Sequence record: PQ818763
Source: Shigella phage ShigP1
Reading direction: 5' to 3' (one strand)
Length of the DNA: 64,000 nt
Below, piece after piece: positions 3,111 through 47,944 of the stretch. Under the pieces are notes generated by a model. That model was not told the origin of the DNA. It worked only from the letters and a program-made list of their open reading frames with translations, and searched no databases. The position numbers were made by a program, and so were the translations under genes. Position 1 is the first letter of the stretch; every line of letters starts with the position of its first letter.

Positions 3111-3422
3111 CTATTTAAGTTTGAGGCTAATGTTAAGGTGCATACATGCTCTGTTCTGTACAGCAGCATAACTTCTACCGAGCATGTCAGCCATTCTCTG
3201 AATAGACATGAACCCAGCATTACGGATAAGGAACTGGTCTTCTTCTTCAGACCATTTAACTCGGATTGAAGCTCTTGATATTCCGAATTTAGTACAAGCT
3301 GTGTTAACTGCATTCTCCGTTACATTCATAATCTGAGCAACTTCTTGAACCGAGTACTCTTTGATTAGTCTCCGAAGATTTTCAATCTGCATCGGAGTCC
3401 ATATAGTTCTTCGTGCTTTCAT
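3111..3422 (-). CDS. putative DNA-binding protein with two Myb/SANT-like helix-turn-helix repeats
   Basis: Two repeats of W-x(2)-E-x(2)-L ... hydrophobic helix (WTPMQIENLRRL...; WSEEEDQFLIRN...MADMLGRSYAAVQNR). Confidence 0.45.
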   Translation of the reverse strand: MKARRTIWTPMQIENLRRLIKEYSVQEVAQIMNVTENAVNTACTKFGISRASIRVKWSEEEDQFLIRNAGFMSIQRMADMLGRSYAAVQNRACMHLNISLKLK

Positions 3423-3450
3423 ACATCCTCCAATTAGCTATTATTCAATT

Positions 3451-42165: not shown

Positions 42166-45100
42166 ATGGCTAACATTAAACCGTGGGAAGAAGCTTCCAA
42201 AGCTCCTGCGTATCTGAATGCCTCTCCGGAGCAACAAGCTCAAATGAGAGAACAATATAAGGCAGCAGGTGGCTCTATTCCTGAGGAACAGCCAGTAGCA
42301 CAACCACAACAAGAAGAACGTGGTGCTATAGGTGAGTTTGCTCAAGGTGTGTCAAATGCTCTTCAATCTGGTGGTGCAAATATTGCAGCTAGTGCTGCTA
42401 AAGGTATTGGTGGTTTAGTTGAGATTGGTGAGAATCTAGCTGGAGCACAAACTAGTTATGGTAAGCGTATCCAAGAGAACTCTCAGAATCTTCTGAAAGA
42501 ACGTATGGATAAGATTGAGGATGGGATTGGTAAAACTGTAGGTCAGTATGCTGGCGTTGCTGGTGATATTGGTATGACTGTTGCTAACCCATTGGCTGCT
42601 GCTGCTATCATCGCAGGTCGTGAGACAGGTCGTGCATATGCAGACCAAACCCCTGAAGAGGGGGAAGATAAATCTATTCTAGATGCAGCCTTGGTTGGTG
42701 GTGCTAACTATGCGGCTCAGAGAATCCTTCCGGGCGCTGTTGGTACAGCTGAGTCCACACTTGGACGTATTGGTCAGAACGTTGCTACTAACGCAGTGGC
42801 TGGTGCTAAAGGTGGTGCTCTTGTAGGTGCTGCTGAAGCTCAGAACAAGCATGGAGATGATACAACCTTTGCTAATGTATTAGAGGGTGCTATCGAAGAA
42901 GGTGCTATGGGTGCTGCATTCGGTGGTGCAGTTGGTGGGGTTCATGGTTTGATTAGCCGTCCGGATTCTGCTGTCTTCAAGAACACTCCAGAGTATGCGA
43001 AGACCGATATTGCTGCTGATGATGAACTGATTCGTAGTGCTAAGAATATTGATGAATTGAAAGAAGCTTACTCTAAAGCTGAAACTGCTAACGCTGCTTC
43101 TGCTCTGAACCTTCTGGATGAGAATGGATTCCGTATTACAGATGCTGTTGCTGTAGATTCTCCTGCCGCTCAGCGTATTCTTAATACTGACCAAGCTCGT
43201 GCTGAGAAAGCTGCTTCCGTTCAGAAAGAACATTCCAACATTCCGGGCCTCAACCCTTTAGCTTCTCCTGCTAAGACTCGTGGTAAAGCATTCGCTGATA
43301 ACGAGCACAACCAGAAGCAGGCTGTTGCTATGAAGGATGCAATGGCTGACTACACCAAAGACAACACGAAAGCTCTTACAGATGTTCTAGATAATCTAGA
43401 CCGTGAATTAACCTCTCTCCGAGCTTCTGGTGATTTTACTGGTAGTCCGATTGATATTAAGAATCGTACACAAGCCGACCGTGACTTCATTGATGCTTAC
43501 AAGACTTTCTATAATGAAGCAAATCGATTCAAAGCTCGTGATGGTGAAGACTTTAACAACTTTGTAGAGAAAGCTGCTGAACTACAGAAGATGGCTGATA
43601 ATGTTTCTCCAGAGATGAAGAAAGCTATTGGTGGGTTGAAGAAACTGAAAGGTATGCCTGAAGGTTTTAATCCTATTCAAGATGCTTACACTCTGAACAA
43701 TACAGCTAAGTTCATGAGCAATCAAGACCGTGGTTGGACTTCCCTGACTGATGATGGATTCCGTGAGGCTTCTTCACCTAGTCTGGTAATGAACACTCTT
43801 GGTGCTGCTAAGTATGCTCTGAATCGCTTCTCTTCTCAGCGTGCTCGCTCTCAACGTGTTAAGCAACAAGAATCTAACAGCGAAGCTATCCGCTCTCTTG
43901 CTCGTGGTGATTTGGAAGTTGCTCGTGCTAAATCTACTGCTGATGAAGCTCGTGCTAAAATGGAAGAAGAACCAGTTGTTGATGACATTAAATTTAAGAC
44001 GCAAAATGACGTGGAAACCGAACCGGTTCGGGAGCCTTCTTCTAGTACTGTGACGGAAGAAAATCTTCCTTCTTCTGCTCCTCAAGAAACTCCTCTTACA
44101 GCTCGTGATTTAGTTGCGCAAAGACGCGCTATCCGTCAGGCTGAACAGCGTCGCGCTGAAGAAGAGGCATTGGCTGCTCAAGAAGCTCCGGTCGAACAAA
44201 CTCCACAGGCTGAACCTCTCCCTGCTCGTAACCCTCTAGAGGAGCGTCGTGCAATGGAACAGCAACGTGCTCAAGAAGAGGCCGCACAGGCTCCAGAACC
44301 AACCGTAGAGGAACCAACAGTCAAAGCTGAGCCATTACCTGCTCGTGCTCCTAAAGCTCCTAAGGAAGCTGTACAGGACGTTAAACCGGCAAGTGGTGTA
44401 GAACGTTTAGCTGCTATGTCTAGTGCTGCTCGTCAGGCTACTAAAGATCGTGCAGAACGTTTTGCTCGTTCTCTGTACTCTAAGGCTGCTAAAGCTAAAG
44501 CTACTGCTGAAAACTTCTTGGCCTATAAAGGTGATCCTAAGGAACTGATGCGTCGTATTCGTCAGGAAGATAATGCTATCAACACTGAACGTCATGAAGA
44601 AATGGCTCGTAACCAGCTGGCTTCTCAGCAAGGTATTGCTACTGCTAAGAACAACACTGTACGAACTAATTTTGCTGAGTGGGTTAAGGAACGTGGTCTG
44701 CCAGAAGACATTGCTACTAAGGCATTACGTGCTGAAGAGAAAGGTTTAGGTGGGAACGTAACTAACTTGGATAGTCTGAAACGTCGTGCTGAAAGGTTGT
44801 ATCAGAAGCAGCGTGAGGATGAGTTTGATAGATTATATCAACAAGCTCTAGAAGAGAACAAAGCTTTCGATAAGAAGGATGCTCCTAAACTGGTTGACCA
44901 GAAGAAAGAGCTTCAGTCTGAGATTGATGCTTTGATTGATTCAGAACCTTTACGTCCTGCTCAGAAAGATGCTATGCGTAAGCTGATGAATGACTTTGTA
45001 GATGGGAAGTTTAAATCTTCAGAGAAGGCTGGCAGGGAAGAGGCTTTGGAAGTTGGTCAGATGAAGGATATTTGGGATGGGTTTATTAACACCTACAACA

Positions 45101-46587
45101 GAGAAGTGAATGCCTTCAACAAAGCTAACAAGAACTCTCAGTACGAAGCTGCTGCTAAGCATTTACAGGCTCGTGAAGAACGTCTTGCTACTCTGAAAAA
45201 CAAAGCTCAGGCTCGTTCAGATGCTAAGGCTGCTGTTGAGAATGAACGTAAAACTTTAGAGGCTATTGCAGCTCAGAAGAGTGAGATTGAGAAGATGATG
45301 GAAGGTTTACCTAAACCTGTTCGTGAGGCTCAGGAATCTCGTACATTGAAACAGTTGGCTGCTCACCATGACAAGAACTCTCCAGTTCCTCCAGAGAAGT
45401 TCCGTAGTTACATTGAACGTATCCACAACGCCGAGTCAGATTACCTTGATCGTCAGCGTCGTTTAACTGATGCAGAGGAAGATGCTCGTCAGGCCAAGTG
45501 GAACAAGATGTACGAGCAAGCGGAAGAGATGAACCGTAAGTTTGATGTGGACAAGAGAGTTAAGCGCAGTGAAGAGCTTAAAGCGGCCCAAGAGCGTGAG
45601 AATGATCTTATGGCAGTACAACGTCAACGTGATGACATTCATCGCCGCCTGATGCGTACTATGGAAGATAAGGGCATATCTAGAGAGGATGCTGAAGCAT
45701 TTGCTGGTTCCTATATGGATAACCGTTATGCACTTCTTGAGAAGCCTATGACTCCTACTGAACATCAGAATGCTCGTTCTCGTATCGAAGCTGATGTTGA
45801 GAAGTTTGCTAAGAAGTACGAATCAATGACTCCTATCGAGAAAGAGATTGTTAAGGTTACTGGAGATACTGAAGGTAAGCTTGATAACTTGGATGCGGAT
45901 ACTAGGAAGGCTATTGAGGAGGCTCAGAAGGTTGACTCTGATATTAAGAAACTGCAAGAGGAAGAATTGGAGATGGAGAAGATTCGTTCTGCTCTGCCTG
46001 ATGATGAAAAATCTCAAGCAAATTCTGATATCTTGGAAAGCATTAAACAACAGGAAGAGGTCTTTGCTGATAAAGTAGAGAAAGCTTTCTTGAGTGGGAA
46101 GAGCTTGGATGAGTTGGCTAGTGTGGCTGAAGTTTTAGACAGGGTTCATGGTGCAGATAAGGCTGGTAACAACCGTCGCTTTGTACGTGCATTGCAGACT
46201 GCTGCTGAAAACAAGAAGAAGTATGGTGATAATCCAGTAGCTTGGTTTAGTGCTGATGATTACTCTGCCATTGCTAAACTTGGTGCTTCTTCCGCAGGTG
46301 GTAACAAATCCAGAGCACTGGAGAAGATCTTTGGTTCTACAGCTGAACAGGCTAAGAGTAAGTTGCTTGGTAGGGATGATGTAGCGAAGATGAGACGTGT
46401 AATTGAAGAGAACCCTGATATTAAGATTCCTTCTTACAAGACAACGAATCGTACTGAGTACTTGAAGTTCTTGGAGAAGTTTAATGACGAAGGGAAGCCG
46501 AAGATTAAACGTGGCTCATTGTCAGAGAAGCTTGAACGCAGTAAGCGTCAATCGAGACTCCGTGTAAGAGTTCGACCTAAGGAGTGA
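42166..46587 (+). CDS. large internal virion or ejection protein (tape-measure-like), about 1473 aa
   Basis: Track ORF trimmed to ATG 42166 (AAAAGGAG upstream); Gly/Ala-rich hydrophobic N-terminal third, long charged helical remainder; last gene of the structural block. Confidence 0.45.
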   Translation: MANIKPWEEASKAPAYLNASPEQQAQMREQYKAAGGSIPEEQPVAQPQQEERGAIGEFAQGVSNALQSGGANIAASAAKGIGGLVEIGENLAGAQTSYGKRIQENSQNLLKERMDKIEDGIGKTVGQYAGVAGDIGMTVANPLAAAAIIAGRETGRAYADQTPEEGEDKSILDAALVGGANYAAQRILPGAVGTAESTLGRIGQNVATNAVAGAKGGALVGAAEAQNKHGDDTTFANVLEGAIEEGAMGAAFGGAVGGVHGLISRPDSAVFKNTPEYAKTDIAADDELIRSAKNIDELKEAYSKAETANAASALNLLDENGFRITDAVAVDSPAAQRILNTDQARAEKAASVQKEHSNIPGLNPLASPAKTRGKAFADNEHNQKQAVAMKDAMADYTKDNTKALTDVLDNLDRELTSLRASGDFTGSPIDIKNRTQADRDFIDAYKTFYNEANRFKARDGEDFNNFVEKAAELQKMADNVSPEMKKAIGGLKKLKGMPEGFNPIQDAYTLNNTAKFMSNQDRGWTSLTDDGFREASSPSLVMNTLGAAKYALNRFSSQRARSQRVKQQESNSEAIRSLARGDLEVARAKSTADEARAKMEEEPVVDDIKFKTQNDVETEPVREPSSSTVTEENLPSSAPQETPLTARDLVAQRRAIRQAEQRRAEEEALAAQEAPVEQTPQAEPLPARNPLEERRAMEQQRAQEEAAQAPEPTVEEPTVKAEPLPARAPKAPKEAVQDVKPASGVERLAAMSSAARQATKDRAERFARSLYSKAAKAKATAENFLAYKGDPKELMRRIRQEDNAINTERHEEMARNQLASQQGIATAKNNTVRTNFAEWVKERGLPEDIATKALRAEEKGLGGNVTNLDSLKRRAERLYQKQREDEFDRLYQQALEENKAFDKKDAPKLVDQKKELQSEIDALIDSEPLRPAQKDAMRKLMNDFVDGKFKSSEKAGREEALEVGQMKDIWDGFINTYNREVNAFNKANKNSQYEAAAKHLQAREERLATLKNKAQARSDAKAAVENERKTLEAIAAQKSEIEKMMEGLPKPVREAQESRTLKQLAAHHDKNSPVPPEKFRSYIERIHNAESDYLDRQRRLTDAEEDARQAKWNKMYEQAEEMNRKFDVDKRVKRSEELKAAQERENDLMAVQRQRDDIHRRLMRTMEDKGISREDAEAFAGSYMDNRYALLEKPMTPTEHQNARSRIEADVEKFAKKYESMTPIEKEIVKVTGDTEGKLDNLDADTRKAIEEAQKVDSDIKKLQEEELEMEKIRSALPDDEKSQANSDILESIKQQEEVFADKVEKAFLSGKSLDELASVAEVLDRVHGADKAGNNRRFVRALQTAAENKKKYGDNPVAWFSADDYSAIAKLGASSAGGNKSRALEKIFGSTAEQAKSKLLGRDDVAKMRRVIEENPDIKIPSYKTTNRTEYLKFLEKFNDEGKPKIKRGSLSEKLERSKRQSRLRVRVRPKE

Positions 46588-46631
46588 TAAAAGAAAAGCC
46601 CTCAAGGAGAAATCCAAGAGGGCTTTATTAT

Positions 46632-46997
46632 TTAACGTCCCCAATCTTTATTGGTAAACGTTTTTAGTCGGTGACAGTTCGCACAAAGTGTTTGAAGATT
46701 TTCTTCTCTATTATCTTTGTGATTACCGTTTATGTGATCTACATCTAATTGACAAGTGTGTTTAGGGACGAAACCACACAACTCGCACACTTCTTTCTTA
46801 AAGTCTACGTATGGCGATTTATATCGTCTAGTACGTTCTCTGTGTGCATCCATATTCTCGTACTCTCTTTTATTGCAAGGAGAGCACAAAGGTGCAAACT
46901 TTCCACCACCTTTTGATTTCTGAGGGTTCTTGTTGCACAAAACACAAAGACCACGAACATTAGATGGCTCTGTTTTTCTAAACCTCCATGTTCCCAT
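46632..46997 (-). CDS. HNH endonuclease
   Basis: CxxC ... DVDHINGNHKDN ... LQTLCANCH motif. Confidence 0.7.
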   Translation of the reverse strand: MGTWRFRKTEPSNVRGLCVLCNKNPQKSKGGGKFAPLCSPCNKREYENMDAHRERTRRYKSPYVDFKKEVCELCGFVPKHTCQLDVDHINGNHKDNREENLQTLCANCHRLKTFTNKDWGR

Positions 46998-47053
46998 TAA
47001 TCCTCCTTGAAGGGGCTTTATTTGTTTCTATATGCTAGAATCCATCAAATTCA

Positions 47054-47314
47054 TCATACATCCCAATTTTCTTCTTCGAAGTCAATCATATAGACCTCCC
47101 AATCATCTGCAAATAAATCACCCTGAGATGGAATCCATCCGGGCTGAATAATACCTTGAGCGTTCTTTAAGACCAAATATGGGGCAAAACGGTATTGACC
47201 TACAGTATCAACTTTATCACCTACTTTAAAAATGAACTGGTTTGCACCATTCCAACCAGAGCGGGTAATCTTTTTCCCTTCTTTTACTTTCTCAAGTGCT
47301 AAACTAAAATCCAT
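47054..47314 (-). CDS. DUF2829-family small protein (Tad2-family-like candidate)
   Basis: ALEKVKEGKKITRSGWNG ... WIPSQGDLFADDWEV resembles the DUF2829 pattern as recalled. Confidence 0.45.
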   Translation of the reverse strand: MDFSLALEKVKEGKKITRSGWNGANQFIFKVGDKVDTVGQYRFAPYLVLKNAQGIIQPGWIPSQGDLFADDWEVYMIDFEEENWDV

Positions 47315-47322
47315 TTGTTCTC

Positions 47323-47550
47323 CTAGATTAAATCATAATACTTAATAATATCAGAGAGTTTGAACTCTCGAATCTCATCCTTCTCTACATCAATCGCTGT
47401 CATAATCCAACAAGGTTTGCCACCGTTATGAAAACGGGAGCTAGCAACGGAGGTTCGGAGTGGAATAACGGACCGGTCAGCGATCTCACCTCTCCAATTG
47501 CGATAGCGAAAGCGAAGCACTTGTTGCGTAGATTTTTGATCATCACTCAT
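47323..47550 (-). CDS. hypothetical protein (75 aa)
   Basis: Track ORF trimmed to ATG 47548-47550, which overlaps the upstream stop by 8 nt. Confidence 0.4.
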   Translation of the reverse strand: MSDDQKSTQQVLRFRYRNWRGEIADRSVIPLRTSVASSRFHNGGKPCWIMTAIDVEKDEIREFKLSDIIKYYDLI

Positions 47551-47944
47551 TTCCTTTTTTGAATTGTTTTCTTGCATCATTTTCCATCTTAGTTTTAATC
47601 TTATGACAAGGGTCTTTACACAGAACCTGAAAACCTTCTTTCTCACATAGAGCACGAGAGATGATTTCATCCCAAGTTGCTTCATGGTCAAGAGGAACTA
47701 TAGGCTCTATGTGGTCAATAGCCATATCCTTTACAGGGTGGTCAGAACCACACATGGCACACTTGAAGTGCATTGCCAGTCTACCTGTCTTTGGATTAAT
47801 CTTCTGCTCTGTCTTGGCGTCTGCTAGTGCATCGAACATGGGCTTCCACTTTCTAGTCAGAGAACGAATCCCGGACTTGATGAAAGAGTTGTAACGAGCT
47901 TCAGTCCACATTCCACTACAGCGAGTCTTCTCAGACTTCGCCAT
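47543..47944 (-). CDS. HNH endonuclease
   Basis: CAMCG ... AIDHIEPI ... LC..CHK motif. Confidence 0.6.
   Translation of the reverse strand: MAKSEKTRCSGMWTEARYNSFIKSGIRSLTRKWKPMFDALADAKTEQKINPKTGRLAMHFKCAMCGSDHPVKDMAIDHIEPIVPLDHEATWDEIISRALCEKEGFQVLCKDPCHKIKTKMENDARKQFKKGNE

Follow-up and report, generated by a model that had tools for sequence, protein, structure and literature searches.

SPO1 Tad2 (gp34.65; structures 8SME, 8SMF and 8SMG) is the founding anti-Thoeris sponge and binds 1''-3' and 1''-2' gcADPR. HgmTad2, which is AcrIIA7 (8KBI-8KBM), and SptTad2 (8WJD) are dual sponges for gcADPR and cyclic dinucleotides, and ModTad2 (8V3E, 9EIB) sequesters His-ADPR (type II Thoeris) and cUMP (Pycsar). 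Solved Tad2 proteins are homotetramers of two V-shaped dimers, with the ligand pockets between non-dimeric protomers; in SPO1 Tad2 and ModTad2 the V-shaped dimer is built by helix alpha2. In the SPO1 pocket, W25, N26, W73 and D79 hold gcADPR and T78 forms a hydrogen bond with its adenine; the contacts through I63 and T65 are non-polar, and waters are coordinated by D67, H71 and S76. The equivalents in HgmTad2 are W21, N22, G23, W87, L88, S90, T92, D93, M76, A78, T82 and V84, and the HgmTad2 mutants W21A/N22A and S90A/T92A/D93A lose binding; the residues of the beta1-beta2 loop (W25/N26 in SPO1 Tad2, W21/N22/G23 in HgmTad2) stack on the ligand and bind its diphosphate. In HgmTad2 and SptTad2 (cGG, cGAMP) and in MoTad2 (cUMP), a 35-41-residue insertion after strand beta2 forms a second pocket.

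The family is functionally diverse: its members act on Thoeris I, II and IV, CBASS and Pycsar, and its binders include binders of His-ADPR, N7-cADPR, cUMP and cyclic dinucleotides. Type I Thoeris was inhibited by four of five diverse Tad2 homologues tested, and of 84 sponge homologues 65 were active against one or more of seven signalling systems and 19 against none. Here we describe a Tad2-family gene in a window of 64,000 nt from Shigella phage ShigP1 (record PQ818763), a Kuravirus/SU10-like podovirus. A preliminary description had proposed that the gene encodes a DUF2829-like protein, possibly a sponge, of a family that sequesters gcADPR; the last point holds for SPO1 Tad2 and HgmTad2 and is too narrow for the family as a whole. 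What is already known is the domain, which Pfam names for its anti-Thoeris function; what is new is an allele with a minimal loop and a fused tail.

A Tad2-family protein in a leftward operon

The ORF starts with ATG and encodes MDFSLALEKVKEGKKITRSGWNGANQFIFKVGDKVDTVGQYRFAPYLVLKNAQGIIQPGWIPSQGDLFADDWEVYMIDFEEENWDV (Table 1). The preliminary description had reported an 86-aa product with two characteristic segments, and both occur exactly as quoted, ALEKVKEGKKITRSGWNG as residues 6-23 and WIPSQGDLFADDWEV as residues 60-74. ORFs that overlap it on the + strand are just 35-39 aa long, and an exact-sequence look-up of the 86-aa product returned no identical protein on record. The Shine-Dalgarno sequence overlaps the TAG stop codon of the upstream WYL-like gene, which argues that the Tad2-like gene is translationally coupled within a leftward operon.

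Table 1. Coordinates of the Tad2-like gene, its parts and its neighbours in ShigP1.
Feature	Position	Strand	Evidence
Complete 86-aa ORF, Tad2-like domain and fused acidic tail	47054..47314	-	ORF list, Pfam, AF2
Tad2-like (DUF2829) domain, residues 1-74	47093..47314	-	Pfam match, model DSSP, Foldseek
Codons W21-N22-G23, GWNG loop	47246..47254	-	Alignment and published residue roles
Codons W60-I-P-S63-Q-G65-D66	47117..47137	-	Alignment and published residue roles
Tail residues 76-86, MIDFEEENWDV, and stop	47054..47089	-	DNA alignment with L004, Bas88, Bas91, ECBP2
Shine-Dalgarno AGGAG, 5 nt 5' of Tad2-like ATG	47320..47324	-	Sequence
Exchanged cassette, ~250 bp	47074..47321	.	BLAST maps, windowed identity
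64-nt element holding the mini-ORF	47036-47099
HNH endonuclease gene, free-standing	46602-47008 (ORF 46632..46997)	-	PF01844, 35.8 bits
WYL-like protein, 85 aa	47323..47580	-	PF13280, 20.8 bits, under the 21.8 cutoff; phrog_3715
Second HNH-like gene	47543..47944
YAcAr (YspA/cpYpsA-related SLOG) protein, 130 aa	49471..49863	-	PF10686, 29.5 bits (cutoff 28.2)
Macro-domain protein, 173 aa	50527..51048	-	PF01661, 41.6 bits

The DUF2829 assignment, for which the preliminary description had proposed an HMM search and a comparison of the predicted structure with a Tad2 structure, is confirmed by both. The single Pfam match of the ORF in hmmscan is PF11195, the DUF2829 model, now named "Tad2-like, Thoeris anti-defense 2-like domain" (E=1.7e-24; 86.5 bits against a curated gathering score of 25 bits), with residues 1-74 spanning profile positions 1-72 of 73. 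A phmmer search against all PDB sequences matches exclusively Tad2/AcrIIA7 proteins (E 1e-10 to 1e-12), the best being SptTad2 8WJD, ModTad2 8V3E/9EIB, HgmTad2 8KBI and SPO1 Tad2 8SME. PHROGs 1048 and 872, both of unknown function, match at E 1e-21 to 1e-23, and NCBIfam has no model for the protein. The label "transcriptional regulator" carried by phrog_643 (E=6e-7) is rejected as an annotation artefact of a DUF2829-containing PHROG, because unannotated DUF2829 PHROGs and Tad2 structures match far more strongly. An exhaustive HMMER scan of 1.84 billion representatives gives 3,349 relatives at E<=1e-3; a word-indexed search gave 4 relatives only, and the alignment used here (A1, 59 sequences, also the AF2 input) was built from the exhaustive search. 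The relatives also show other layouts: many family members are 150-260 aa long and carry the Tad2 domain at the C-terminus behind an N-terminal domain of ~100 residues, a layout shared by PHROGs 1048 and 872, and two giant proteins (P0006, 2877 aa; P0022, 2004 aa) contain 9-13 separate stretches that match the ShigP1 query.

The AF2 model (pLDDT 89.9, pTM 0.77) has, by DSSP, a helix at residues 3-11, six strands, a helix at 64-68 and a strand at 72-74, with disorder confined to the final ~10 residues (pLDDT 46 in the last block). These elements reproduce the Tad2 layout of helix alpha1 at the N-terminus, an antiparallel sheet, a short helix near the C-terminus and a closing strand. Foldseek against the PDB returns 24 matches at E<1e-3, all of them Tad2 structures (TMq 0.71-0.78; best rmsd 1.6 A), and the first non-Tad2 fold follows at E=0.83. 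The matches include the ligand complexes 8smf, 8kbj and 9eib, with 1''-3' gcADPR, 1''-2' gcADPR, cGG and His-ADPR among the ligands. Together, the Pfam, PDB-sequence and AF2/Foldseek matches establish membership of the Tad2 family. We conclude that the ORF product belongs to the Tad2 (DUF2829/PF11195) family as a minimal protein of one domain. Current Pfam and AntiDefenseFinder would pick the gene up automatically; it leaves knowledge of Tad2 unchanged, and its practical value is modest.

Cassette exchange and neighbouring genes

The closest relatives of ShigP1, that is, Bas91, PGN6866, SU10 and MN03, are 95-98% identical to it over 44-52 kb, and all four lack the Tad2-like gene, which is missing or replaced in most Kuravirus relatives. 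At the corresponding position Bas91, the closest sequenced relative, has two unrelated small ORFs of unknown function, at 3158-3265 and 3278-3439 of its own sequence (35 aa, phrog_24805; 53 aa, phrog_653), and ECBP2 has no gene. A homologue at the same locus occurs in only eight Gordonclarkvirinae records (Bas86-88, EK010, TH43, NC-B and E20-1 among them), mostly Suseptimavirus; these homologues are 63-69% identical to the ShigP1 protein and 13 residues longer.

Identity along the locus is a mosaic. The gene body is ~95% identical to a metagenomic contig (L004) that carries the allele P0001, and cannot be aligned with Bas91; the flanks at 47321-47800 and 44000-46601 are 95-99% identical to Bas91 and ~75-79% identical to the contig. 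The mosaic points to recent transfer of a ~250-bp cassette, and the alignments place its junctions in the intergenic ribosome-binding region on one side and in a conserved 3' element on the other. The 64-nt element with the mini-ORF is 97% identical to ECBP2, against 76-79% for its flanks, and apparently serves the variable cassette as its recombination anchor on the downstream side. We conclude that the ~250-bp Tad2 cassette moves between Kuravirus-like and Suseptimavirus-like phages, probably at this anchor. To judge from these comparisons, the Tad2 locus behaves as a small hotspot for accessory genes, and the other genes that occupy it may likewise have anti-defence roles; a variable locus and cassette exchange are typical of anti-defence genes.

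The Tad2-like gene and its WYL-like neighbour are flanked by two HNH endonuclease genes. The free-standing one, immediately downstream of the cassette, is inserted relative to Bas91: it separates the stop codon (46587) from the terminator-like hairpin (47003-47015) of the convergent 1488-aa gene, and hairpin sequence forms the ribosome-binding site of the HNH gene, whose product is likely a homing endonuclease. The second HNH-like gene overlaps the start of the WYL-like gene, which lies directly upstream of the Tad2-like gene and is kept in all relatives examined, with or without Tad2.

The macrodomain protein is encoded in the same operon as the Tad2-like protein and is labelled "phosphatase" or "Appr-1-p processing" in relatives; its best NCBIfam match is the macrodomain of the antitoxin DarG, a DNA ADP-ribosyl glycohydrolase (E=7.9e-42, 143.7 bits). 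The score falls short of the equivalog cutoff, since the phage protein has the N-terminal domain alone; the protein may help the phage to counter DNA ADP-ribosylation of the DarT type. The product of the YAcAr gene is labelled "GTP-binding domain" or "ATP-binding protein" in relatives. SLOG domains are sensors of nucleotide ligands and include the gcADPR-binding domain of ThsA, so this product could be another signal-binding protein in the operon.

Ligand pocket and candidate signal

In HMMER alignments all core pocket residues are present: W21, N22, G23, W60, S63 and D66, together with conservative I61 and L49. W21-N22-G23 corresponds to W21/N22/G23 of HgmTad2 and, in its first two residues, to W25/N26 of SPO1 Tad2; W60-I-P-S63-Q-G65-D66 corresponds to W73..S76..T78-D79 of SPO1 Tad2 and W87..S90..T92-D93 of HgmTad2. 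Across the 59 aligned sequences the six core residues are invariant or at least 90% conserved, with N22, W60 and D66 invariant and W21 and G23 at 90% or above. The adenine side differs at four positions from every solved Tad2: G65 stands for T78/T92 (SPO1/HgmTad2), N51 for T65/A78, Q53 for D67/D80 and Q57 for H71/V84. In the same alignment the nearest relatives have the consensus LKNAQG..QPGW.PSQGD, and at the T78 position Gly prevails, with 92 of 155 motifs from the nearest representatives carrying it. Because Gly is the majority residue there, G65 marks a subclade and gives no ground for exclusion from the family. To judge from these alignments, the diphosphate/ribose side of the pocket is of canonical type and the adenine side is of the type of a large "PSQGD" subclade. 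The literature consulted, which did not cover the 18 Tad2s of Hadary et al., yielded no experimentally tested member of this subclade.

By analogy with the characterised homologues we infer sponge function for the ShigP1 protein, and with it oligomerisation, ligand binding and an anti-Thoeris phenotype. Our preferred reading, to which we give a probability of roughly 0.6, is an anti-Thoeris sponge for an ADPR signal with 3'cADPR (1''-3' gcADPR), by the same analogy the most likely ligand. Since four adenine-side contacts are changed and the family is functionally diverse, gcADPR is the likeliest ligand, yet not an established one. The reading draws support from the family match and fold, the core pocket residues, the dN/dS values, the strong ribosome-binding site with its operon coupling, the published rates of inhibition, the AntiDefenseFinder calls for orthologues and the variable locus; against it count, besides the adenine-side changes and the diversity of the family, the missing alpha2 element, the lost stop codon of the domain and the roughly one quarter of tested sponges that inhibited no system. 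According to this reading, the protein would be expressed from the leftward non-structural operon, coupled to translation of the upstream gene, and would assemble, as its homologues do, into a homo-oligomer in which protomers pair through helix alpha1. The GWNG loops and W60-x-P-S63-x-x-D66 segments of two protomers would enclose a closed pocket, and this pocket would bind and sequester, without degrading it, the ADP-ribose-derived signal that TIR (ThsB) enzymes of the host produce upon infection. The Thoeris effector would be left unactivated and the phage would escape abortive infection, with the gene serving as an accessory cassette presumably swapped among Gordonclarkvirinae phages by recombination at conserved flanks. 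With this gene the phage is likely to resist TIR signalling immunity of the Thoeris type, a point relevant to predicting host range and to the choice of therapeutic phages. We found no literature linking Kuravirus with Thoeris.

The rival that survives best keeps the fold and the sponge mechanism and tunes the pocket to another signal, His-ADPR (type II Thoeris), N7-cADPR (type IV Thoeris) or an undescribed one. Tad2 specificity does vary, in that ModTad2 takes up His-ADPR but no gcADPR, Tad2_71 acts on types I, II and IV, and further homologues on Pycsar or CBASS; the changed residues face the adenine side and are conserved across a large subclade; and the 19 tested sponges that hit none of the seven systems suggest that further ligands exist. 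However, the diphosphate/ribose contacts are the ones through which gcADPR is bound, type I Thoeris is inhibited by most Tad2s tested, and in the judgement of Li et al. ~99% of the family keep the gcADPR site. We therefore regard a different ligand as possible but rather unlikely. A more specific proposal, which we offer more tentatively still, is that the LKNAQG..QPGW.PSQGD subclade to which the protein belongs, here with a minimal insertion and no alpha2, uses its remodelled adenine side to recognise a signal other than 3'cADPR, conceivably an undescribed TIR product, and that a dimer might take the place of the tetramer. If that were true, the protein would be usable as a signal-capture reagent, as ModTad2 is for His-ADPR.

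Insertion loop, tail and comparison with described Tad2 proteins

The beta2-beta3 insertion of the ShigP1 protein comprises ~12 residues, and the W-to-W spacing is 40, against 49 in SPO1 Tad2 and ModTad2; it is equally short or shorter in 43 of the 143 nearest family representatives. When the long allele P0002 is modelled (pLDDT 95.8), it shows in addition a strand at 34-38 and a short helix at 44-47, both missing from the ShigP1 allele. Helix alpha1, the interlocking interface, is predicted to be present, whereas the alpha2 element, the V-dimer interface, is absent from the ShigP1 model and kept in the long allele. With alpha2 missing, the tetramer of the solved structures may not assemble in the same way, and on these models the quaternary structure of the short-loop form is uncertain. 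A naturally minimal Tad2 of this kind, with a 74-residue core and no alpha2 insertion, could help to define the smallest functional sponge.

The short loop is taken to be derived, because the long-loop relatives (P0002, P0003, P0004, P0014 and Bas88) are more diverse and only two alleles, those of ShigP1 and P0001, are short. P0001 is a 75-aa allele with the same short loop and 95% identity, found on three metagenomic contigs with the same neighbours. For ShigP1 against P0001, dN/dS is 0.20 with dS 0.16, from 12 differences only; for ShigP1 against Bas88 it is 0.30, again from few substitutions. These values are compatible with continuing purifying selection on the gene.

The tail has a separate origin. 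MIDFEEENWDV is encoded in the P0001 contig, Bas88 and ECBP2 by a separate, conserved mini-ORF of 11 codons; in the first two its ATG overlaps the Tad2 stop codon (TTATGA), and in ECBP2 it directly follows the upstream gene and has its own AGGAGG ribosome-binding site. In ShigP1, a 1-nt insertion near 47091 (TCT-TATGA to TCTATATGA) removes the domain's own stop codon and fuses the Tad2 domain in frame to the mini-ORF, yielding a C-terminal segment of 12 residues (75-86) that AF2 predicts to be disordered; the insertion may be a real variant or a sequencing error. The 35-aa protein of Bas91 (Bas91_0021) likewise ends in ...EENWDV. As a structured RNA, the 64-nt element with the mini-ORF gave nothing in Rfam beyond a chance CRISPR-DR match (E=0.96), and its predicted fold is insignificant (z-score -0.43).

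The loop and the tail together raise the reading that the allele is decaying or non-functional, its two-protomer pocket lost through a 13-residue in-frame deletion and a frameshifting insertion of 1 nt. The derived state of the loop, the strand and helix missing relative to the long-allele model, the loss of the domain's stop codon, and the dispensability of the gene, seen in its absence from most Kuravirus relatives, would all fit decay. Yet the dN/dS between the two short alleles, for all that it rests on 12 differences, indicates that selection on the gene has been purifying since the deletion; the model gives the domain a confident fold; loops as short or shorter are found in the representatives counted above, and the Pfam core model has only 73 positions; the cassette was recently transferred intact between lineages; and C-terminal extensions are present in many Tad2 homologues, as the alignment shows. 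We consider decay improbable.

Much less likely still is a cyclic-nucleotide sponge, anti-CBASS or anti-Pycsar, that like HgmTad2, SptTad2 and MoTad2 works through a second pocket within the V-shaped dimer. Some Tad2 proteins bind cGG, 3'3'-cGAMP or cUMP in such a pocket, and CBASS is common in E. coli. But the pocket comes nearly entirely from the insertion after beta2; the large insertion that marks the cyclic-dinucleotide-binding subclass (HgmTad2, SptTad2, SaTad2) is absent from the ShigP1 protein, whose ~12 residues there make such a pocket unlikely, and among the HgmTad2 contacts R31, S47 and N85 have no counterparts and only F70 is kept, as F43. With the insertion and most contacts missing, we reject this reading. 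To our knowledge, E. coli has no type II-A CRISPR-Cas, which counts against an anti-CRISPR of AcrIIA7 type that inhibits Cas9. That reading is scarcely credible and we reject it, for although the domain recurs in AcrIIA7, one of the top PDB matches, and AntiDefenseFinder names its model tad2_acriia7, the domain alone is common to the two, Li et al. report no SpyCas9 antagonism by Tad2, and Yirmiya et al. make the case that the role of DUF2829 proteins is anti-Thoeris and not anti-CRISPR.

Compared with SPO1 Tad2, the ShigP1 protein is likewise a small, single-domain phage protein, alike in Pfam domain and in fold (Foldseek E ~3e-7, TMq 0.72-0.77, 33-38% identity) and keeps the GWNG loop and the W-x-P-S-x-x-D segment. 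It differs in G65 for the adenine-bonding T78, in N51, Q53 and Q57 for T65, D67 and H71, in an insertion ~9 residues shorter and without alpha2, which in SPO1 Tad2 provides the V-dimer interface with its F44 stacking, and in an extra acidic tail of 12 residues. HgmTad2 and SptTad2 align with it without gaps over the C-terminal half (ShigP1 39-74 with 66-101); HgmTad2 has W21, N22 and G23 under the same numbering, and its W87, S90 and D93 are ShigP1 W60, S63 and D66. Unlike these two, the ShigP1 protein has no 35-41-residue insertion for a cGG/cGAMP pocket, and T92 is replaced by G65. ModTad2 gives the best superposition (rmsd 1.6 A over 76 columns, TMt 0.89, 38% identity) and shares the core W/N/W/S/D residues, but has Ser at the position of G65 and a longer insertion, whose extended alpha2 creates a second pocket.

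The nearest described genes are Bas88_0021, Bas87_0021, Bas86_0022 and the EK010, TH43 and NC-B orthologues. AntiDefenseFinder labels the three Bas genes tad2_acriia7 / Anti_Thoeris (BASEL collection; PMC11990801, S2 table). These orthologues have the protein identity to ShigP1 given above and sit at the same locus, where the WYL-like gene directly precedes them and the convergent 1488-aa gene follows. They differ from it in being 88 aa long, in the 13-residue longer loop with its extra strand and helix, and in ending ...DDWEIL with the mini-ORF kept separate.
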